Shown here: piece by piece, positions 24,823 through 39,311 of the stretch | How the letters are laid out: the number at the start of each line of letters is the position of its first letter | Position numbering within the stretch: position 1 is the first letter of the stretch | Source: a virus | Length of the DNA stretch: 39,311 nucleotides | Virus genome (UHGV): UHGV-0361196 | Strand: one strand, 5' to 3' | Notes under the pieces: generated by a model | What the model saw: the letters and a program-made list of their open reading frames with translations, nothing else | The model's database searches: none | What the model was told of the DNA's origin: nothing | Position numbers and translations under genes: made by a program

Positions 24823-25012
24823 ACCCGCAGCGGGAAAAGCCATCCGTGACCCGCTCACGATGAAATTACTGGCTCCGGAGGGAGAAGAAAAGCCCCGTAA
24901 CAGTTTCTGGATACGTCGCCTTGCAGCCGGTGATGTGGTTGAAATCGGGAGCACCGAAAACACGGCGGATGATACCGACGCTGCGCCGAAAAAACGGAGT
25001 AAATCGAAATGA
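24806..25012 (+). CDS. small conserved Mu-like protein (68 aa) upstream of sheath
   Basis: Overlaps both neighbours. Confidence 0.6.
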
Positions 25013-26496
25013 GCGATATTTCATTTAACGCGATCCCGTCAGATGTTCGCGTTCCTCTGACGTATATCGAATTTGATAACAGTAATGCCGTCAGCGGAAC
25101 ACCGGCACCCCGTCAGCGCGTGCTGATGTTCGGGCAAAGCGGAAGTAAAGCCAGTGCGGCACCAAACGTGCCTGTCCGTATCCGTTCCGGCTCACAGGCC
25201 AGTGCGGCATTTGGTCAGGGTTCCATGCTGGCACTGATGGCAGATGCATTCCTGAACGCTAACCGCGTGGCGGAGCTGTGGTGTATTCCGCAGGGAAACG
25301 GCACCGGTAATGCTGCTGTCGGTGAAATCTCACTGTCCGGAACGGCAGGCGAAAACGGCTCGCTTGTGACTTACATAGCCGGTCAGCGACTGGCGGTATC
25401 TGTCGCAGCAGGTGCAACGGGAGCGGCGCTGGCTGACCTGCTGGTTGCCCGAATCAAAGGCCAGCCTGATTTACCGGTGACGGCAGAAGTTCGCGCAGAC
25501 AGCGGGGATGATGACACCCATGCAGATGTGGTTCTGAGTGCAAAATTTACGGGTGCATTATCTGCCGTGGATGTGCGCTGGAACTATTACGCGGGTGAAA
25601 CCACCCCTTACGGGATTATCACGGCATTCAAAGCCGCCTCCGGGAAAAATGGCAACCCGGATATCAGCGCAAGTATCGCGGGAATGGGCGATCTGCAATA
25701 CAAATATATTGTGATGCCCTATACCGATGAACCGAACCTGAATCTGTTACGCACTGAATTGCAGGAACGCTGGGGACCGGTCAATCAGGCTGATGGCTTT
25801 GCCGTGACAGTGCTGTCCGGCACGTATGGGGATATTTCCACGTTTGGTGTCAGTCGTAATGACCATCTGATCTCCTGTATGGGGATTGCCGGTGCACCGG
25901 AACCGTCATACCTGTACGCCGCCACACTGTGTGCCGTTGCCAGCCAGGCGCTTTCCATCGACCCGGCGCGTCCTCTCCAGACGCTGACGTTGCCCGGAAG
26001 AATGCCGCCTGCGGTGGGGGATCGTTTCACCTGGTCAGAACGTAATGCGCTGCTGTTTGACGGCATCTCCACGTTTAACGTGAATGATGGTGGTGAAATG
26101 CAGATTGAACGCATGATCACGATGTACCGCACAAACAAGTACGGTGACAGCGATCCGTCTTATCTGAACGTGAATACCATCGCCACGCTGAGTTATCTGC
26201 GTTATTCGCTGCGAACCCGCATCACGCAGAAATTCCCGAACTACAAGCTGGCAAGTGATGGCACCCGCTTTGCCACCGGTCAGGCCGTGGTGACGCCATC
26301 CGTGATCAAGACGGAACTGCTGGCACTGTTTGAAGAATGGGAAAACGCCGGACTGGTCGAGGATTTCGACACGTTCAAAGAGGAGCTGTATGTGGCACGT
26401 AACAAGGACGACAAAGACCGTCTTGATGTGCTGTGCGGCCCGAATCTGATTAACCAGTTCCGCATTTTCGCGGCACAAGTTCAGTTCATTCTGTAA
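25009..26496 (+). CDS. L: contractile tail sheath protein
   Basis: 495 aa; immediately upstream of the tube gene. Confidence 0.9.
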
Positions 26497-26505
26497 GGAG
26501 CATTT

Positions 26506-26862
26506 ATGGCTGGAAATCAGCGTCAGGGGGTGGCGTTCATCCGTGTCAATGGCATGGAGCTTGAATCAATGGAAGGTGCCTCCTTCACGCCTTCCGGCAT
26601 CACCCGTGAAGAAGTGACCGGCTCGCGGGTTTATGGCTGGAAAGGTAAACCACGTGCCGCAAAAGTGGAATGCAAAATTCCGGGCGGTGGTCCCATCGGG
26701 CTGGATGAAATTATCGACTGGGAAAACATCACCGTCGAATTCCAGGCTGATACCGGTGAAACCTGGATGCTGGCGAATGCCTGGCAGGCGGATGAACCGA
26801 AAAACGACGGCGGCGAAATTTCGCTGGTACTGATGGCAAAACAAAGCAAACGCATTGCATAA
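26506..26862 (+). CDS. M: tail tube protein
   Basis: 118 aa; strong RBS AAGGAG. Confidence 0.85.
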   Translation: MAGNQRQGVAFIRVNGMELESMEGASFTPSGITREEVTGSRVYGWKGKPRAAKVECKIPGGGPIGLDEIIDWENITVEFQADTGETWMLANAWQADEPKNDGGEISLVLMAKQSKRIA

Positions 26863-26871
26863 GGGGAAACA

Positions 26872-27306
26872 ATGGACGAAATGAATTTAAGTCCTGAAGC
26901 ACAGGAACTGCGTGACAGTATTGTGGCGGAGCTTCAGTCCGGTGGGCTGAAACTGAAAGACGGCCTCCCGTTCGGCACCGGTGACGAGACTGAAATGCAG
27001 TATGACGTGACACTGCGTGAACTGACCGCAGGCGATCTGATTGATGCCCAGGCGGCTGCTGAAAAGCTGGTAATGAGCAAGGAAGGTCCGGTGCTGGTCA
27101 GTTCCCCGTCCCGGATGGGACTGGAAATGCTGCGCCGACAGATTGCCAGCGTGGGTTGCATCAAAGGCCCGTTATCGCTGGCGCTGATGCGCAAGCTGTC
27201 TGTTGATGACTTCCAGCGTCTGTCGCTGGCTACAGAGATGCACGACATGGCTGTGGCGGCATCGCTGACGCAAGAACGGGGGCGAGTGGCTGCGGTGCCG
27301 GAATGA
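26872..27306 (+). CDS. tail assembly chaperone-like protein
   Basis: 144 aa; acidic; positioned between tube and tape-measure genes. Confidence 0.65.
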   Translation: MDEMNLSPEAQELRDSIVAELQSGGLKLKDGLPFGTGDETEMQYDVTLRELTAGDLIDAQAAAEKLVMSKEGPVLVSSPSRMGLEMLRRQIASVGCIKGPLSLALMRKLSVDDFQRLSLATEMHDMAVAASLTQERGRVAAVPE

Positions 27307-27450
27307 TATTGAGAAAGCGGCGACAGCGATTGGCGTTATTCTGAAAAGTGGCCCGGAATGGGCCTTGTCTCTCCCGCTGTCCCGCTTTTTCCGGCACTGC
27401 CAGCAGGCGAAAACCCTCTCTCAATATCACCGTTAAATCAGGAAATATCT

Positions 27451-29709
27451 ATGACCGGGAAACGCTTAAAAGCGTCAGTCATTATTGACCTTAATGGCAA
27501 TCTTTCCCGGCGTTCCCGCCAGTATTCGAACCAGATAAACGCCCTGTCCCGTAGCGGGCAAAGTTCCCTTCGTGCCCTGCGTATGGAGGTTGTGCGCGTT
27601 TCTGGTGCCATTGACAGAATGGGTTCTCTGTCAACCCGTACATTCCGAATGCTGTCAGCCGGGGCGCTGGGTATCGCTGGCGTGGGTTACACCGCCAATA
27701 AACTGTTTATTGGTGCAGCCGCCCAGCGTGAGCAACAGATCATCGCCATGAACTCGCTGTATCACGGCGATAAGGTCAGAGCGCAGGCCATGATGGCCTG
27801 GGCAAAGCAGAACGCGAAGGACACCACGTGGGGGCTGAGTGGTGTTCTTGATGAGATCCGTTCGTCGAAAGGCTTCGGCATGACGGATGAACAGACGAAA
27901 CAGTTCATCACCATGTTGCAGGATCAGGGGGCCATGCACGGCTGGGATTTACCCACTGCACAGGGTGCCTCACTGCAACTGAAACAGATGTTTGCCCGCC
28001 AGCAAATCACAGCGGCGGATGCCAACCTGCTGACCGGTTACGGTATCAACGTTTATCAGGCGCTGGCTGATGCAACGGGAACGGACGTTAAAAAAATCCG
28101 TGATCTGGGTACAAAGGGCAAGCTGGGCATGAAATCCATTCTGACGGTATTCAGAACGCTGTCAGAACAGTCAAAAGGTGCACAGGCCAGTGCGATGAAC
28201 TCCTGGGACGGGATGTTCGCCCAGATGGAAGCCAACCTGCTTGAATTTCGCATAAAGGTGGCAAACAGCGGCCCCTTTGAAGAAATCAAGAACGAGATGC
28301 GCCGGGTGCTTAACTGGCACGACATGGCGGATAAATCCGGGGAACTTGACGCACTGGCAGAAAACATTGGTCAGAAATTTCTGACCACGTTCAGAACGGT
28401 AAAAATCGCGGCGCAGGAATTATGGCGCTGGCTGAAACCGGGCAAGGATGCGCTGGTATGGGTTGACCAGAATATTGTCAGCCTGAAAAAACTGGCTGCT
28501 GTTCTGGTGTCCGTCTGGCTTGCCAACAAAGCTCTGAGGGCAGGCTGGGCCGTGGCTAAACCCTCATGGCAGGTTGCCAGTTATCCGTTTAAAACCGGGC
28601 GTCGTATGTGGCGCCGGATGCGGAACCGCAAACGTGAGCAGGCAGGTCTGCCGATCCCGGCGCCCATGACAACTGAGGCGCTGTTGCAGGGCACCGGCAT
28701 TCAGCGTGTGTTTGTCATCAACTGGCCCCGTGGATTTGGTGGCTACGGGAGTGGCGGCGGTCGTCGCGGACGCGGCGGCGGAAGAACGCCCCCGCTGTTA
28801 CCCCGCCAGCCGCTGTTGCTGCCCGGGCCACGACCACTGCCATTACCTGCACCACGCCCTGTGCCGGCATTACCCCCACCCGGCGTTCCGGCAGCAGCAC
28901 GCCCCGCGCCACGACCTTTACCCGGTAAATCCGGTCTTCCGGGCAGGTTTGCAGGCAGCGCTGCCGCGCAGCAGGTTACGGGAGCGGCAGGAACGCTGGC
29001 GAATGCCGGGCGTACTGTCAGCAGACTGCTTTCCGGTGCCGGAAACAGGCAGACCGCGCCATCTCCGGTCGTTCCGGTAACACCGCGCCCCGCGCCCCGC
29101 CCTTTGCCCGCTAAATCCGGTCTTCCGGGCAGGCTGGCAGGCAGCGCTGCCGGGCAACGGGTTACGGGAACGGTCGGAAAACTGGCTGATGTCGGGCGTG
29201 CCGTTGGCGGGTGGTTTTCCGGTATCGGGAACAGACTCGCAGACAGCGCAATCGGTAGGGTTGTGACAAAAGGTGCCGGGGCGCTGGGCTGGATGGGGAA
29301 AGGTGCCGGTCGTGCCCTGTCACGTCTGGGTGGCCCGGTAATGGGGGCACTCCAGCTTGCCCCCGTCCTGATGGATGAGCAGGCGTCAACCCATGAAAAA
29401 GCAGGCGCAATTGGCAGTACAGCCGGTGCATGGCTCGGCGGTGCCGTTGGCAGCCTTGCCGGACCGCTGGGTACGGTTGCCGGTGCCACGTTGGGCAGTG
29501 TCGCCGGGGAGTATCTGGGCGGTTTTGTAACCGACCTGTATCAGAAATGGACGGCCCCGGATAAGGAACCGCAGGAACAAAAAGTGAATGCGGAAGCCTC
29601 GCTGCGCGTCGAACTTGGCGAGGGGTTACGTCTGACCAGTTCCCGCGTCACCGAGGACGGTATGGGGCTGAATATTTACGCGGGCGATAACTACATTACA
29701 GGCTGGTAA
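27451..29709 (+). CDS. tail tape measure protein
   Basis: About 752 aa from ATG 27451 (AGGAAA upstream); Ala/Gly-rich helical N-terminal half; Gly- and Pro-rich low-complexity stretch and internal tandem duplication; C-terminal Gly-rich region. Confidence 0.85.
28898..29269. repeat. in-frame tandem duplication of about 186 bp inside the tape-measure gene
   Basis: TAAATCCGGTCTTCCGGGCAGG occurs at 28926..28947 and 29112..29133 (period 186 bp); encodes two consecutive 62-aa units beginning RPAPRPLP[GA]KSGLPGR. Confidence 0.6.
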
Positions 29710-29713
29710 AACC

Positions 29714-31201
29714 ATGTTTGAAGATGCTTTAAATGCCGTTAATGCTGTCCGGGATAAAATCAGCGGTGGTAAGAAAACAACCGGCAAAGGCACGTTTCGT
29801 AACGTGCCGTTTCTCGTCATCGAGGAGCAAAAACAGGCTGGCGGACGTCGCCTGGTTAAACGCGAGTACCCGTTACGTGATACCGGCGGCGTCAATGACC
29901 TGGGGAAAAAGCTTCGCTCCCGTACATTCAGCGCCTGCATTCTGAACAGCAACGCAGAAACAGCCAGAGATGAAGCGGGTGCGCTGATGGATGCTCTTGA
30001 TGCTCCGGGTGGCGGTGAGCTGGTACATCCTGATTTCGGCACTGTGGACGTCATGGTGGATTCATGGGAATGCCGCACTAAAGCGGATGAACTGAATTAT
30101 TACGCGTTCACCGTTACCGTTTATCCGTCGTTGCAGGATACTGCCCCGGACTCAGAGACAGACACCAGTGCAGCCGTACCGGCACAGGCCGTTGCTGTAA
30201 CCGGTTCTCTGGGAGATACGCTGTCCTCTGTCTGGCAGACCGTAAAAGATGGCACTGCGGCGGCAACCGCCGTGATGGAAGCTGTAACCGGTGTCATCGA
30301 TGATATCAGTGATGCGGTGGACAATCTGGGGGTTACGCAGACTGTCAGCGGTCTGATGGGATCGCTTTCTGCGATGAAAGGCTCTGTGACCAGCCTGATT
30401 AACCAGCCTGCCATGCTGGCCTCCTCGCTGATGGGGGCGCTGTCCGGCGTTTCATCGTTATGCGATACCCGGACAGCATTTTCCACATGGAACCGTCTGG
30501 CGCAGCGATTCGAACGTCGCCATGCCGCCACCGCAGGCAGACAGGGGACAATCACAACCTCGTACAACAGTCCGGTTGCAGAAAAAAATATTGCCACACT
30601 GAACTACGTCATGCTGGCAGCAGCACAGACATACCGGGCGGAGGCAGCAAGCCAGGCACTGACTGCGGCACTGGATTTCAGTCGCCGGATGGATAATGCC
30701 GCCCGTGCACCTGTACTGGATGCCCCGTCCACCACAACCGGCACAGCCAGCGGGGCCAGCAGCACATCCGCTACCGTCACACAGGGACAGTTACAGTTAA
30801 CTGCCATAACCCCGGACGGCGGTTTTTCACAGGTATCCTTTTCAGACAGTGGTACAGCCACGCCCCCGGTATTTGAAAGTGTGTCCGATATCGGAAAAAC
30901 AGCCGCCATGCTGGGGGCAGCGCTGGATACCGTCATTCTGACGGCATCTGAGCAGGGTTTTTCGACAGACAGCGCTCAGCTTACGCAACTGCGCCTGCTG
31001 GTTGTTGCTGACCTGGAAAAACGCGGACTGCAACTGGCGGGCAGTGAAATGCACAGCCTGCCGGAGACGATGCCCGCAGTGGTGGCCCTGTACCGTTACA
31101 CAGGAAACAGCCGGAACTGGCAACGGCTGGCCCGCAGGAATGGCAGCAGCAACCCGTTATTTGTTCCCGGTGGTGTCAGTACTGAGGTGATTAATGAGTA
31201 A
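29714..31201 (+). CDS. N: tail/baseplate protein (Mu N-like, DNA circularisation protein family)
   Basis: 495 aa; Ala/Thr/Ser-rich C-terminal half; assigned by position after the tape measure. Confidence 0.8.
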
Positions 31202-34431: not shown

Positions 34432-34964
34432 CACCCTATCAGACGGCCTTTCTGCAATTACTGCCGTCAGGGCTTGCCTGGAATAAAAGCCCCGACAGCA
34501 AATTATCTGCGCTGGCGCAGGCCATCAGCGACGTGATTGCCACTGCGGCGGATGATGCGCGGCAAATGCTGCGGGAGCGTTTCCCGTCCACATCCCGCTG
34601 GTATCTGGGTGAGTGGGAATCATTTCTGGGGTTGCCGGACTGTACAAGCGAAAACGGCACCCTGTCCGAACGCCAGCGGGCTGCCGCGAATAAAATGCGT
34701 ATGACCGGCAATCTGAGTCGGCGCTTTTATGAATGGCTGGCTGCGCAGTACGGTTTTACCGTCAGGCTGACGGATTCCACAGAAGGCCAGTGGGTTACGC
34801 AGGTCAATATTTACGGTATTAAAAATTATCGCAACGCAACGGTGCTGGATAATGTTCTGACGCCGTTACGTGTTTATGAATCGGGTGCGCTGGAATGTTT
34901 ACTGGAGAAATATAAACCTGCACATCAGATTTATAAATTTGTTTACCATGACGGAGATAACTAA
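34422..34964 (+). CDS. baseplate/tail protein (P2 gpI-like position)
   Basis: 180 aa; overlaps both neighbours. Confidence 0.7.
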   Translation: MAVTPYQTAFLQLLPSGLAWNKSPDSKLSALAQAISDVIATAADDARQMLRERFPSTSRWYLGEWESFLGLPDCTSENGTLSERQRAAANKMRMTGNLSRRFYEWLAAQYGFTVRLTDSTEGQWVTQVNIYGIKNYRNATVLDNVLTPLRVYESGALECLLEKYKPAHQIYKFVYHDGDN

Positions 34965-37528
34965 TGTTTTATATTGATAACGACAGCGGCGTAACCGTCA
35001 TGCCGCCCGTATCCGCCCAGCGTAGTGCTATCGTTCGCTGGTTTTCAGAAGGTGACGGGAATAATGTTATCACATGGCCCGGCATGGACTGGTTTAATAT
35101 TGTGCAGGCGGAGTTATTAAACACGCTGGAAGAAGCCGGTATTCAACCGGATAAAACAAAATTAAACCAGCTTGCACTGTCCATTAAAGCCATTATGGGC
35201 AATAACGCGCTGCTGATAAAAAATAACCTCAGCGAAATAAAAACGGCCGGGGCATCAGCACAGCGCACAGCACGTGAAAATCTGGGTATTTATGATGCCA
35301 GTGTGAGCAAAAAGGGGCTGGTTCAGCTAAGCAGTGCAACAAACAGCACCAGTGAAAAGCTGGCAGCAACGCCAAAAGCGGTCAAGGCAGCAAATGACAA
35401 CGCAAATTCACGTCTGGCGAAAAATCAGAACGGTGCAGATATCCAGGATAAATCAGCTTTTCTGGACAATGTTGGCGTTACCAGCCTGACGTTTATGAAA
35501 AACAATGGCGAAATGCCGCCTGATGCTGATCTGAATACATTTGGTCCCGTTAAGGCTTATCTGGGGATCTGGTCTAAAGCTACCTCAACTAACGCAACAC
35601 TGGAGAAAAATTTTCCGGAAGATAATGCTGTCGGTGTGCTTGAGGTTTTTGCTGCCGGCAATTTTGCAGGCACGCAACGCTTTATCACGAGAGACGGCAA
35701 TGTATACATGCGTAAACTCGCCAATAAGTGGAATGGTACTGATGGTCCATGGGGCGTATGGCGTCACACTCAATCAGCTACCCGCCCTTTGAGTACGACT
35801 ATAGACCTGAATACGCTTGGAGCCGCCGAACATCTTGGTTTATGGCGTAACAGTAGCTCGGCTATAGCTTCATATGAACGCAATTATCCAGAGGAAGGCG
35901 GCTTTGCTCAGGGGACGCTTGAGATCCTCGAAGGCGGGAATTATGGAAGAACACAACGTTATACCACTCGCCGTGGAAATATGTATGTCCGCTGCCTTGC
36001 GGCAAGCTGGGATGCATCAAATCCGCAGTGGGAACCGTGGTTAAGAGTCGGTCATCAGTCAGAGAGTCGTTATTACGACGGGGATTTGAATGATGTGACT
36101 TCACCAGGTATTTACAGCGTTACAGGTAAAGCGACCAACGGTCCAGTACTGGACGGAAACGGCGTGACTGTACTCGGCATTCTGGAAGTGTTGAGGCGGT
36201 TTGATGGTGTTAATGTATGGCAGCGTTATACAACTGCCGGAACAGGTACAACCCTTAAAGGCCGCACCTTTGAGCGCGTCTTTACCGGCAGCTCATGGAG
36301 CGAATGGCGGGAAGTCTACACCTCGTATTCACTTCCCCTGAATCTGGGTATCGGCGGTGCTGTGGCAAAGCTCACCAGCCTGGACTGGCAGACCCACGAC
36401 TTTGTGCCGGGCAGTCTGATAACCGTTCGGCTTGATAACATGACCAACATTCCCAACGGTATGGACTGGGGCGTCATTGATGGCAACCTGATAAACATCG
36501 CAGTTGGTCCGAGTGATGATTCCGGTACGGGGCGCTCAATGCATGTATGGCGCAGCACTGTAAGTAAAGCGAACTACCGCTTTTTTATGGTGCGTATTTC
36601 AGGAAATCCGGGACGCCGCACGATTACAGCAAGACGAGTACCAATCATTGACGAAGCCCAGACATGGGGCGCGAAACAGACATTCAGTGCTGGCCTTTCT
36701 GGTGAACTGTCCGGCAATGCGGCGACAGCAACAAAGCTGAAAACAGCCCGTAAAATTAATAACGTTTCGTTTGATGGAACATCAGATATTAACCTGACGC
36801 CGAAAAATATTGGTGCATTTGCTTCAGGAAAAACAGGAGACACCGTTGCGAATGATAAAGCCGTTGGATGGAACTGGAGTAGCGGAGCCTATAACGCAAC
36901 TATTGGTGGGGCATCAACGTTAATTCTTCATTTTAATATCGGGGAAGGAAGTTGTCCCGCCGCCCAGTTTCGCGTTAATTATAAGAACGGTGGTATTTTT
37001 TATCGTTCTGCTCGTGACGGTTACGGATTCGAGGCTGACTGGTCTGAGTTTTATACCACAACGCGAAAACCTACAGCGGGAGATGTCGGTGCACTGCCGT
37101 TATCTGGTGGTCAATTGAATGGTGCTCTGGGTATAGGAACATCCAGTGCTCTTGGCGGTAATTCGATTGTTTTGGGTGATAATGACACGGGCTTTAAACA
37201 AAATGGTGATGGTAATCTGGATGTTTATGCTAATAGCGTCCATGTTATGCGCTTTGTCTCCGGAAGCGTTCAAAGTAATAAAACCATAAATATTACGGGG
37301 CGTGTTAATCCCTCGGATTACGGTAACTTTGATTCCCGCTATGTGAGAGATATCAGACTTGGCACACGTGTTGTCCAGACCATGCAGAAAGGGGTGATGT
37401 ATGAGAAAGCAGGGCACGTAATTACCGGGCTTGGTATTGTCGGTGAAGTCGATGGTGATGACCCCGCAGTATTCAGACCAATACAAAAATACATCAATGG
37501 CACATGGTATAACGTTGCGCAGGTGTAA
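34964..37528 (+). CDS. tail fibre protein with three tandem knob-like modules
   Basis: 854 aa; N-terminal region typical of Mu S / P2 H-type fibres (...SSATNSTSEKLAATPKAVKAANDNA...); three tandem modules of about 85 aa at aa 188-452; C-terminal Gly-rich region. Confidence 0.85.
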   Translation: MFYIDNDSGVTVMPPVSAQRSAIVRWFSEGDGNNVITWPGMDWFNIVQAELLNTLEEAGIQPDKTKLNQLALSIKAIMGNNALLIKNNLSEIKTAGASAQRTARENLGIYDASVSKKGLVQLSSATNSTSEKLAATPKAVKAANDNANSRLAKNQNGADIQDKSAFLDNVGVTSLTFMKNNGEMPPDADLNTFGPVKAYLGIWSKATSTNATLEKNFPEDNAVGVLEVFAAGNFAGTQRFITRDGNVYMRKLANKWNGTDGPWGVWRHTQSATRPLSTTIDLNTLGAAEHLGLWRNSSSAIASYERNYPEEGGFAQGTLEILEGGNYGRTQRYTTRRGNMYVRCLAASWDASNPQWEPWLRVGHQSESRYYDGDLNDVTSPGIYSVTGKATNGPVLDGNGVTVLGILEVLRRFDGVNVWQRYTTAGTGTTLKGRTFERVFTGSSWSEWREVYTSYSLPLNLGIGGAVAKLTSLDWQTHDFVPGSLITVRLDNMTNIPNGMDWGVIDGNLINIAVGPSDDSGTGRSMHVWRSTVSKANYRFFMVRISGNPGRRTITARRVPIIDEAQTWGAKQTFSAGLSGELSGNAATATKLKTARKINNVSFDGTSDINLTPKNIGAFASGKTGDTVANDKAVGWNWSSGAYNATIGGASTLILHFNIGEGSCPAAQFRVNYKNGGIFYRSARDGYGFEADWSEFYTTTRKPTAGDVGALPLSGGQLNGALGIGTSSALGGNSIVLGDNDTGFKQNGDGNLDVYANSVHVMRFVSGSVQSNKTINITGRVNPSDYGNFDSRYVRDIRLGTRVVQTMQKGVMYEKAGHVITGLGIVGEVDGDDPAVFRPIQKYINGTWYNVAQV
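35525..36319. repeat. three tandem, diverged protein-level repeats in the tail fibre gene
   Basis: Modules beginning LNTFGPV, LNTLGAA and LNDVTSP share the pattern G-x-LE[IV]-x5-8-Q-R-[FY]-x-T-x4-8-R-x7-8-W-x-x-W. Confidence 0.5.
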
Positions 37529-37531
37529 ATT

Positions 37532-38059
37532 ATGCAGCATTTAAAAAACATTAAGTCAGGTAATCCAAAAACAAAAGAACAATATCAGCTAACAAAGAAT
37601 TTTGATGTTATCTGGTTATGGTCCGAAGACGGAAAAAACTGGTATGAGGAAGTAAGTAATTTTCAGCCAGACACAATAAAGATTGTTTACGATGAAAATA
37701 ATATTATTGTCGCCATCACCAGAGATGCTTCAACGCTCAACCCTGAAGGTTTTAGCGTTGTCGAGGTTCCTGATATTACCGCCAACCGACGTGCAGACGA
37801 CTCAGGTAAATGGATGTTTAAGGATGGTGCCGTGATTAAGCGGATTTATACGGCGGACGAACAGCAGCAACTGACAGAATTACAGAAGGCAACTTTGCTT
37901 TCCGAAGCTGAATCCGTGATTTTGCCGCTGGAACGCGCTGTCAGGCTGAATATGGCAACAGATGAGGAGCACAGCCGACTGGAGGCATGGGAACGCTACA
38001 GCGCTCTGGTCAGCCGCGTGGATACGGCAAAGCCAGAATGGCCACAAAAACCAGAGTAA
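37532..38059 (+). CDS. U: tail fibre assembly chaperone (Mu U / lambda Tfa-like)
   Basis: 175 aa directly after the fibre gene; C-terminal segment [32 protein letters not shown] typical of Tfa proteins. Confidence 0.8.
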
Positions 38060-38064
38060 AAATT

Positions 38065-38092
38065 AAGGCCCGATAGCGGGCCTTCTCTTATT
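38065..38092. terminator. hairpin terminator between convergent tail-fibre-assembly sequences
   Basis: 8-bp stem AAGGCCCG / CGGGCCTT with loop ATAG, followed by CTCTTATTC. Confidence 0.55.
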
Positions 38093-38291
38093 CTGGTTGT
38101 TCGGAAAACGTTACTGGCAGGCTGGAGGGGTCTGTATATTCGACCTTCTGCGCATAGAGCATCCACTCGGTTAATTTTTGTTTATTCTCGTCGGAAATGA
38201 TACCCAGCCGTAGCGAACGCATATAGAAAACGACGATCGAATCAATTGAATCGATCGGTAATACAGATCGATTATGCCCCAATAACCACAC
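38088..38291 (-). pseudogene. relic of an inverted second tail-fibre-assembly gene (G-segment remnant)
   Basis: Minus-strand 67-aa ORF whose last 30 aa (SDENKQKLTEWMLYAQKVEYTDPSSLPVTFSEQPE) mirror the Tfa C-terminus pattern D-E-x4-L-x2-W-x2-Y-x3-V-x3-D; convergent with the intact chaperone gene; no variable fibre part or invertase follows. Confidence 0.35.
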
Positions 38292-38320
38292 TCAACCCAT
38301 GATGTTTTTTAAGATAGTGG
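38231..38320 (+). promoter_or_regulatory. mom operon promoter region with Dam-methylation (GATC) cluster
   Basis: Three GATC sites within 35 bp (38235..38238, 38253..38256, 38266..38269), then T6 tract 38305..38310 and candidate -10 TAAGAT; matches the known Mu mom promoter architecture; RBS AAAGGAGG before com. Confidence 0.6.
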
Positions 38321-38343
38321 CGAATTGATGCAAAGGAGGTGAG

Positions 38344-38532
38344 ATGAAATCAATTCGCTGTAAAAACTGCAACAAACTGTTATTTAAGGCGGATTCCTTT
38401 GTTCACATTGAAATCAGGTGTCCGCGTTGCAAACGTCACATCATAATGCTGAATGCCTGCGAGCATCCCACGGAGAAACATTGTGGGAAAAGAGAAAAAA
38501 TCACGCATTCTGACGAAACCGTGCGTTATTGA
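38344..38532 (+). CDS. com: Com, zinc-finger translational activator of mom
   Basis: 62 aa with CxxC...CxxC (CKNCN, CPRCK); near-identical to Mu Com as recalled. Confidence 0.9.
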
Positions 38533-39190
38533 GTATGAAGGCCAGATTGTTGGCTATGGTTCAAAGGAGCTGCGCGTTGAAACCATATCCTGCTGGCTGG
38601 CCCGCACAATTATTCAGACAAAGCACTATTCCCGCCGTTTTGTGAATAACTCTTACCTCCACCTGGGAGTATTCAGCGGACGCGATCTGGTTGGCGTTCT
38701 CCAGTGGGGATATGCCCTTAACCCCAACTCAGGTCGTCGTGTCGTGCTTGAAACGGATAACCGGGGCTATATGGAGTTGAATCGCATGTGGCTACACGAC
38801 GACATGCCCCGCAACTCTGAATCACGGGCCATCAGCTACGCGCTGAAAGTTATCAGATTACTGTATCCGTCAGTGGAGTGGGTTCAGTCATTTGCTGACG
38901 AACGCTGCGGATGCGCAGGCGTTGTGTATCAGGCGTCGAATTTTGATTTTATTGGCAGCCATGAAAGCACGTTCTACGAGCTGGATGGTGAGTGGTATCA
39001 CGAGATAACGATGAACGCAATTAAGCGCGGTGGACAACGAGGCGTGTATTTACGGGCTAATAAAGAGCGTGCCGTGGTGCACAAATTTAATCAGTATCGC
39101 TACATCAGGTTCCTGAACAAGCGAGCAAGGAAGCGGCTAAATACTAAGCTATTCAGGGTTCAGCCATACCCTAAAAGCACTCCCGATTAG
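38453..39190 (+). CDS. mom: Mom, DNA modification protein (adenine modification, anti-restriction)
   Basis: ORF overlapping the 3' end of com in another frame, as in Mu; matches Mu Mom as recalled; the true start is probably downstream of 38453, near the com stop. Confidence 0.85.
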
Positions 39191-39278: not shown

Positions 39279-39311
39279 GTTGTTGTTCCTGCTACTGCTA
39301 CTGCTACTGCT
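39279..39311. repeat. short microsatellite in right flank
   Basis: (GTT)3 at 39279..39287 followed by (GCTACT)3 at 39291..39308, running to the window edge. Confidence 0.5.

Follow-up and report, generated by a model that had tools for sequence, protein, structure and literature searches.

How many copies of a repeated module does a phage tape-measure gene carry, and does that number bear on the length of the tail? The question is raised by UHGV-0361196, a 39,311-nt stretch of viral DNA (hereafter the window, meaning the whole of it), which covers the late part of a Mu-like prophage (Muvirus). Its tape-measure gene, the homolog of Mu gene 42, holds two similar units side by side, and the original prediction, made from the sequence of the window, read them as a recent in-frame duplication which would lengthen the tail, whose copy number could vary between isolates, or which could be an assembly artefact. 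We find it likely that the window contains a genuine tandem array of a 62-residue module in the gp42 protein of an E. coli Mu-like prophage, with a copy number that varies between prophages.

A Tandem Array of a 62-Residue Module

Tandem Repeats Finder reported one large array in the gene (28880-29234; period 186, 1.9 copies, 80% matches, 0% indels, score 470), and a second repeat search paired 28879-29048 with 29065-29234 at 79%. With a period of 62 x 3 nt and no indels, the units stand head to tail and in frame. Over the full 186 nt, the first unit (A) and the second (B) share 74.7% DNA and 61% protein identity, differing at 47 of 186 positions. The best 170-nt self-match, found at an offset of 186, comprises 135 matches, compared with 69 +/- 2.5 and a maximum of 79 in shuffled sequence (n = 200, 28700-29300), and the similarity of A and B is far above chance. 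Taken together with the identity of the gene, these results bear out the tandem 186-bp, two-unit, in-frame duplication first proposed. The span originally assigned to it, 28898-29269, was broadly right, although the RPAPRP register begins 2 nt away at 28900 and the last ~12 residues are not repeat-like; the Gly-rich and then Pro-rich stretches described ahead of the units are both present (Table 1). The longest exact word shared by the units, the 22-nt TAAATCCGGTCTTCCGGGCAGG, forms the core of their best-conserved segment, where sliding identity is 87-93%, and the segment around this word is where unequal pairing is easiest.

The gene that carries the array lies downstream of the tube gene and the frameshifting chaperone gene and upstream of the tube-initiator and hub genes, the arrangement of a Mu-type tape measure. 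Residues 137-297 of its long open reading frame (ORF) match the tape-measure family PF20155 (TMP_3) with 60.7 bits, against a cut-off of 41; the ORF shares 94-96% DNA identity with gene 42 of Mu and D108, and it matches the Mu gp42 chain of PDB 9ki1 ("Probable tape measure protein") at E = 0, as an ortholog. The longest version of this ORF (27358-29709) begins 93 nt (31 codons) ahead of the ATG at 27451 which is equivalent to the start in Mu, and these upstream codons overlap the -2 frameshift extension of gp41 (Mu_56 in the Mu annotation, where the -2 frameshift product of the chaperone is entered as verified). Judging from the annotated start in Mu, the ATG at 27451 is likely the true start of the tape measure rather than the ORF-maximal 27358, and automatic ORF calling would lengthen the protein by a spurious 31 aa.

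Each module consists of a Pro-rich lead and a Gly/Ala-rich, strongly basic body (LAGSAAxQxVTGxxGxLAxxGRxV...GNR), with 8-9 Pro, 10-11 Gly and a net charge of +6 to +7. The aromatic residues are one Phe in unit A and a Trp-Phe pair in unit B, and an 11-residue periodicity is not evident by inspection; with a unit of 62 aa in two copies, the array is distinct from the 11-residue, aromatic-periodic repeats of the Belcaid/TP901-1 type. Tandem Repeats Finder detected no shorter coding period in the tape-measure gene except a trivial 7-nt run.

The position of the array within gp42 can be described from a layout that distant Mu-like tape measures keep down to ~30% identity. The N-terminal ~340 aa are helical and are followed by a hydrophobic segment, a basic patch, a QxVFVTNWP motif and a Gly-rich basic tract, and then by a variable linker, a Gly/Ala-rich region, a glycine-zipper-like segment and a C-terminal strand region. 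The Gly-rich basic tract recurs at the equivalent position in the distant proteins, where the length and composition of the linker are highly variable and the flanking motifs are conserved. The array occupies this low-complexity variable linker, between the helical N-terminal two-thirds and the glycine-zipper/hub-binding C-terminus.

A GC-rich repeat of this kind might instead encode, or overlap, another product, and long alternative ORFs do run through it, one antisense (28743-29489, 248 aa) and one in the +2 frame (28706-29080). However, a GC content of 65-70%, which comes from Pro, Gly, Ala and Arg codons, by itself yields such ORFs, and the tape-measure frame is the one conserved in all homologs. 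Neither the antisense nor the +2-frame ORF matched a protein family (best E = 0.06, 13.6 bits vs a cut-off of 27.3). We rejected both as GC-driven and regard a second coding function as extremely improbable.

Copy Number Among Related Phages and Prophages

The full-length records of isolated phages (13 of 13, including Mu, D108, SfMu, Mu_3F6, PhiR68_1 and five Yersinia phages) are all single-unit, their alignments covering 2166 nt against 2352 nt in the window, a difference of 186. In the protein alignment these phages carry only the counterpart of unit B (690 aa), which makes unit A the extra one. A search of 5,426 complete E. coli genomes gave 43 with a match, of which 41 are single-unit and two, S6 and 1290, have three units (814 aa); none of the 5,426 has the two-unit (752-aa) allele. 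Cluster look-ups placed the 814-aa form in ~190 contigs, O25b:H4-ST131 included, and the rarer 752-aa form in ~18. Forms of 752, 766 and 671 aa were contributed by a large protein database, and forms of 828 aa (one contig) and 703 aa by IMG/VR. The database also holds 14 different 766-aa protein mosaics, mostly from contigs of near-equal length.

Length also changes within the Pro-rich tract ahead of the units: the 703-aa form (IMGVR_UViG_2531839192_000004) has a 13-aa expansion, and the 671-aa form (Logan ERR11442117) a 19-aa deletion between two PAPRP motifs. On the evidence of these sequences, tape-measure length also changes in finer steps, through the short repeats of the proline motif. 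The expectation that copy number varies among isolates therefore holds, with one, two and three units present besides alleles of 671, 703, 766 and 828 aa, and the comparison of gene length in related phages, which had been proposed as a check, gives, for the 690-, 752- and 814-aa forms, lengths that differ by whole 186-nt units.

A single-unit tape measure with an A-type unit, which could have donated unit A, was found neither among 120 close homologs nor among 19 IMG/VR loci and the closest 50%-identity representatives. A scan of genome contigs that took the C-terminal 352 aa as query and covered one genome for each species gave no confirmed relative. These comparisons bear on the artefact raised at the outset, in which one true unit would have been doubled by mis-assembly. 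Its sole support is that the array generally troubles assemblers. Against it, two complete genomes and hundreds of contigs carry A-type units, the two copies have 47 differences in 186 positions and a longest shared word of 22 nt, and the body of unit A, absent from single-unit genes, is not derivable from such a gene. This explanation is effectively refuted.

Derivation and Age of the Alleles

The tape-measure genes of the window (752 aa), S6 (814 aa) and two further loci, L010 (690 aa) and L011 (671 aa), are 100% identical across 1263 nt on the 5' side and 459 nt on the 3' side of the variable region, and their backbones differ by 0-4 single-nucleotide polymorphisms over 5.8 kb of flanking sequence. 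On these identical flanks the 690-, 752- and 814-aa alleles differ by whole units, in the manner of a minisatellite. A second backbone carries alleles of 690, 766 and 828 aa. The window allele corresponds to the 814-aa allele with a 186-bp deletion and one mismatch, the junction lying within a 55-56-nt exact repeat. A further 186-bp deletion turns the window allele into the 690-aa one without mismatch, the junction falling between 28921-28924 and 29107-29110, just upstream of the 22-nt word. The 671-aa allele is likewise obtained without mismatch from the 814-aa allele by a 429-bp deletion reaching from the upstream PAPRP motif to the PAPRP of the last unit. Because the 690- and 671-aa junctions share only 4-5 nt of identity, they cannot stem from collapse of k-mers during assembly, which shows that some deletions here are real.

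The 690-aa sibling was considered as the ancestor before duplication and rejected, since it is a chimera of an A lead and a B body and hence goes back to an allele with more than one unit. In the three-unit array, the middle unit is in turn a hybrid with a B-type lead and an A-type body, which is the product predicted from unequal crossover between two A+B alleles. L010 and a 752-aa locus (L034), which are neighboring accessions, were also considered as one strain; they have two differences in the flanks, and no clonal argument is made from them.

The duplication had been called recent, which the divergence of its units contradicts. Synonymous divergence (dS) between A and B is 0.47, with a ratio of nonsynonymous to synonymous divergence (dN/dS) of 0.53, compared with a dS of 0.065-0.088 and a dN/dS of 0.03-0.17 between the rest of the gene and Mu, so that either the duplication long predates the split from Mu or unit A was imported. 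The variable region as a whole (28714-29247) is several-fold more diverged from Mu (L001) than the flanks are, with a dS of 0.16 before the repeat and 0.40 in unit B, which points to mosaic recombination, and the linker and repeat look like a cassette exchanged by recombination. The recent events are gains and losses of whole units, and the window allele resembles a contraction of the commoner three-unit allele, not a fresh duplication.

Comparison of the alleles shows that a first, old A/B duplication was followed by gain and loss of whole units through unequal homologous recombination or replication slippage between units, and that the (P)APRP motifs of the Pro-rich tract give rise to shorter in-frame indels between them. 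The outcome is the 671/690/752/814-aa series on one backbone and the 690/766/828-aa series on the other.

The Number of Units in the Window

The relation between the two- and three-unit alleles also fits a reading in which the window under-counts, the source genome having the common three-unit (814-aa) array from which a short-read assembler collapsed a loop. We take this possibility seriously and put it somewhat below even chances. The window array equals that of S6 less one period, apart from one mismatch and with its junction inside the long exact repeat, and the window's flanks are identical to those of 814-aa prophages. Neighboring units of the three-unit array share exact blocks of 51, 50, 37 and 55 nt. 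All seven of the two-unit alleles compared as DNA are one-period deletions of that array, in three junction classes (the 51-, 50- and 55-nt blocks), and the window's switch point falls in the 55-nt block. At least ten deposited "partial" tape measures terminate within the array, indicating that assemblies often break there.

Three further points make the two-unit state of the window insecure. All two-unit alleles come from draft or metagenome assemblies, while the complete E. coli genomes yielded none, and two with 814 aa; an assembler that visits each graph node once would turn a three-unit array into exactly a two-unit array; and assemblies of a sister lineage scramble the array. Among clonal isolates of one project, from that lineage, the 22.3-kb prophage segments of L039 (GCA_009684335.1) and L040 (GCA_009682365.1) have 20 differences, every one of them inside the array (11468-11840 in L039), and a third isolate, L009 (GCA_009682275.1), differs from L039 over 8.3 kb at only four positions, again all in the array. 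At least one of the three, L009, is a mosaic that switches several times when set against the 828-aa array. These differences, like the 766-aa mosaics, most likely reflect mis-phasing or collapse of an 828-aa array by the assembler, not biology.

In contrast to these mosaics, each 752-aa allele examined is a clean single-crossover product. Identical 752-aa proteins recur over samples and pipelines, with one protein (P0006) in seven contigs, one of them a MEGAHIT k141 contig, and another (P0005) in three, and the window's own allele is present with its exact sequence in assembly GCA_047001845.1. Collapse through repeats of 50-55 nt requires k <= 55. Moreover, the 690- and 671-aa deletions, which k-mer collapse cannot produce, occur on the same backbone at about one sixth of the frequency, a proportion that roughly fits real recombination favoring longer identity. 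The reading that we prefer is still a real array of variable copy number. If the window were a collapsed three-unit array, the diagnostic positions in Table 1 would appear heterozygous in read pile-ups. More generally, the array is a trap for short-read assembly; deposited "partial," 752-aa and 766-aa entries may misstate copy number, and predictions of tail length, or comparative ones, that are based on the length of tape-measure genes in Mu-like prophages need caution.

Predicted Consequences for Tail Length

Cryo-electron microscopy (cryo-EM) of Mu described a 30-ring tube (rise ~35 Å) whose inner surface is strongly negative and whose lumen is filled by a gp42 trimer; residues 674-690 of gp42 alone were modelled, bound to the hub and spike (PMC11915804). 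By simple ruler arithmetic, 30 rings x 35 Å give 105 nm for Mu, and 690 aa x 1.5 Å give 103.5 nm, a match from which the whole of gp42, linker included, appears to count. In the mechanism that we envisage, the trimeric tape measure would fill the tube lumen and halt polymerization of tube and sheath, and a longer protein would yield a longer tail. It is established that tails change in length when parts of lambda gpH or T4 gp29 are duplicated or deleted. In TP901-1, tape-measure deletions and insertions shift tail length linearly, and this includes deletions outside the repeat region (PMC5099701).

By the same rule, an extra unit (+9% of the protein) would add ~9 nm (9.3 nm) or ~2.7 rings, for a predicted total of ~32-33 rings with two units and 35-36 with three, compared with 30 in Mu. 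In each chain, every unit would also place 6-7 positive charges opposite the negatively charged lumen. The gain per unit, which draws on the ruler rule and on Mu's own numbers, is a reasonable inference, and tail length probably differs among these prophages. A stronger claim, that E. coli Mu-like prophages, those of ST131 included, form a tail-length series of ~30/33/36 rings set by a recombination-prone 62-aa module, is one we offer only tentatively.

Several points tell against this prediction. Mu, with 690 aa and 30 rings, is the only tail reference, and the isolated phages in the collection are all single-unit. The units lie in a Pro/Gly-rich stretch, and an AlphaFold2 model of the 752-aa protein is non-helical at 398-568; the model is unusable, with a mean predicted local distance difference test score of 31 and a predicted template-modelling score of 0.19 from a shallow 15-sequence alignment, and its secondary structure is a weak hint. 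The dN/dS of 0.53 between units and the variable linker of distant homologs fit a weakly constrained spacer, which may be slack.

These points are shared by an alternative in which the duplication is real and neutral for tail length, the linker being flexible and compressible and not part of the ruler. Copy number would then drift without change to the virion, or affect only the crossing of periplasm and membrane by the tape measure after ejection. The Pro/Gly-rich composition with its predicted non-helical structure (from that low-confidence model), a dN/dS of 0.5 against 0.03-0.17 in the flanks, the wide variation of length and composition between conserved flanking motifs in distant Mu-like tape measures, and the persistence in nature of alleles from 671 to 828 aa are all consistent with it. 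On the other hand, 690 aa at 1.5 Å per residue fit the 30 rings of Mu almost exactly, which leaves little slack, and the TP901-1 deletions outside the repeat region shortened tails proportionally (PMC5099701). We regard a length-neutral linker as possible but rather unlikely.

If unit number does scale the tail, a single phage species would have a trait that can evolve rapidly and may be adapted to the host, either the length of the tail or the distance that the ejected tape measure reaches across the envelope. Natural alleles that differ by one or two modules on identical backbones would make it possible to test whether the ruler rule applies to a simple contractile tail, and the same alleles could test whether a probably non-helical, Pro/Gly-rich segment counts toward the measured length. 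With a near-atomic structure of Mu available, the allelic series would make this a ready-made test.

Features of the Tape-Measure Locus and the Rest of the Window

The features of the locus are collected in Table 1.

Table 1. Coordinates of the tape-measure gene of UHGV-0361196, its repeat units and neighboring genes
Feature	Position	Strand	Remarks
Sheath gene	25009-26496		
Tube gene	26506-26862		
Tail assembly chaperone gp41	26872-27306	+	Pfam Gp41_Mu, 119 bits
-2 frameshift extension of gp41	into 27307-27436	+	as in Mu
Tape-measure gene (Mu gp42 homolog)	27451-29709	+	752 aa
Gly/Arg-rich tract	28732-28788	+	19 residues, immediately 3' of the conserved QRVFVINWP motif
Pro-rich tract	28789-28875	+	13 Pro in 29 residues; short (P)APRP direct repeats
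Unit A	28876-29061	+	62 aa, net charge +7; extra unit relative to Mu, D108, SfMu and Yersinia Mu-like phages
Unit B	29062-29247	+	62 aa, net charge +6; counterpart of the single unit of Mu, 84% DNA identity
Longest exact A/B word, TAAATCCGGTCTTCCGGGCAGG	28926-28947	+	22 nt, encodes KSGLPGR; second copy at 29112-29133
Diagnostic positions 29002, 29053, 29073, 29091, 29097	29002-29097	+	show which units of the three-unit array fed the two-unit allele
Conserved C-terminal part	29248-29709	+	glycine-zipper-like Gly/Ala-rich region and last 17 residues
Last 17 residues	29656-29706	+	counterpart of the only part of gp42 modelled by Mu cryo-EM, hub/spike-bound
gp43, DNA-circularization/tube-initiator gene	29714-31201		followed by baseplate and fiber genes

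The C-terminal part of the tape measure has a dN/dS of 0.03 relative to Mu. Its last eight residues (DNYITGW and the preceding G) do not change among the window, Mu, D108 and SfMu, and the stretch equivalent to residues 674-690 of Mu has one residue change in SfMu. The match of this part to Pfam Gly-zipper_Omp is weak (E = 0.0027, below the cut-off).

Farther downstream, a tail-fiber gene (34964-37528, 854 aa) is followed by a Caudo_TAP chaperone gene (37532-38059) and by com/mom (38344-39190). Unlike the invertible G segment of Mu with its gin gene, the region from 34964 to 39190 has neither a second set of fiber genes nor an intact invertase ORF. A gin remnant is suggested by the return, at ~38214, of similarity to Mu-like phages, which there covers the end of their invertase gene. 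At the other end, positions 1-1500 had no megablast match in the phage collection and may be host flank or a divergent early/regulatory region. The hexamer CTGCTA, perfectly repeated (3.8 copies), occupies the extreme end of the window (39289-39311), ~15-40 nt past the end of similarity to the right ends of Mu-like phages (~39273), and is presumably flanking host or variable-end sequence.

Comparison With Known Systems

The closest known system is Mu itself, whose gp42 (690 aa, PDB 9ki1) sits in the same tail module of sheath, tube, gp41 with its frameshift, gp42 and gp43, and which shares ~98% DNA identity with the window outside the variable region (97.7%, 97.6%). The hydrophobic segment, QRVFVINWP motif, Gly/Arg tract, Pro-rich tract, unit B, glycine-zipper region and hub-binding C-terminus are common to both. 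The window differs in having the extra 62-aa unit A ahead of the Mu-type unit and in the mosaic divergence of its variable region (dS 0.16-0.40) against that of its flanks (0.065-0.088).

It is established that tape measures contain in-frame repeats in variable number, that such repeats are duplicated and lost, and that they are linked to tail length (PMC3271669; PMC5099701; PMC13585406). The 11-residue repeats of siphophages (PMC3271669), TP901-1 among them (PMC5099701), resemble the array described here as in-frame tandem units whose number varies between related phages, and removal or addition of units rescales the siphophage tail. However, the siphophage units have 11 (or 18) residues, form helices and are marked by periodic aromatics, whereas the window has a Pro/Gly/Arg-rich unit of 62 aa, in a C-terminal linker, in a phage with a contractile tail, and in only one to three copies across its relatives. 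In its predicted effect the array is like the engineered TP901-1 tape measures, in which the tail is proportional to length at ~1.5 Å per residue (PMC5099701). While lambda gpH, T4 gp29 and TP901-1 are represented by laboratory constructs with measured tails, the present series consists of natural alleles known from sequence.

Outside phages, the array is comparable to bacterial coding minisatellites, also called variable-number tandem repeats (VNTRs), with which it shares head-to-tail units of a multiple of three, alleles that differ by whole units, identical flanks, and junctions in the best-conserved part of the unit. It departs from classical hypervariable VNTRs in that its copies are few and its units strongly diverged (75-91%). 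Copy-number variation in tape-measure repeats is already known in other phages, and the 62-residue module of this Mu-like prophage is a fresh example of that phenomenon.

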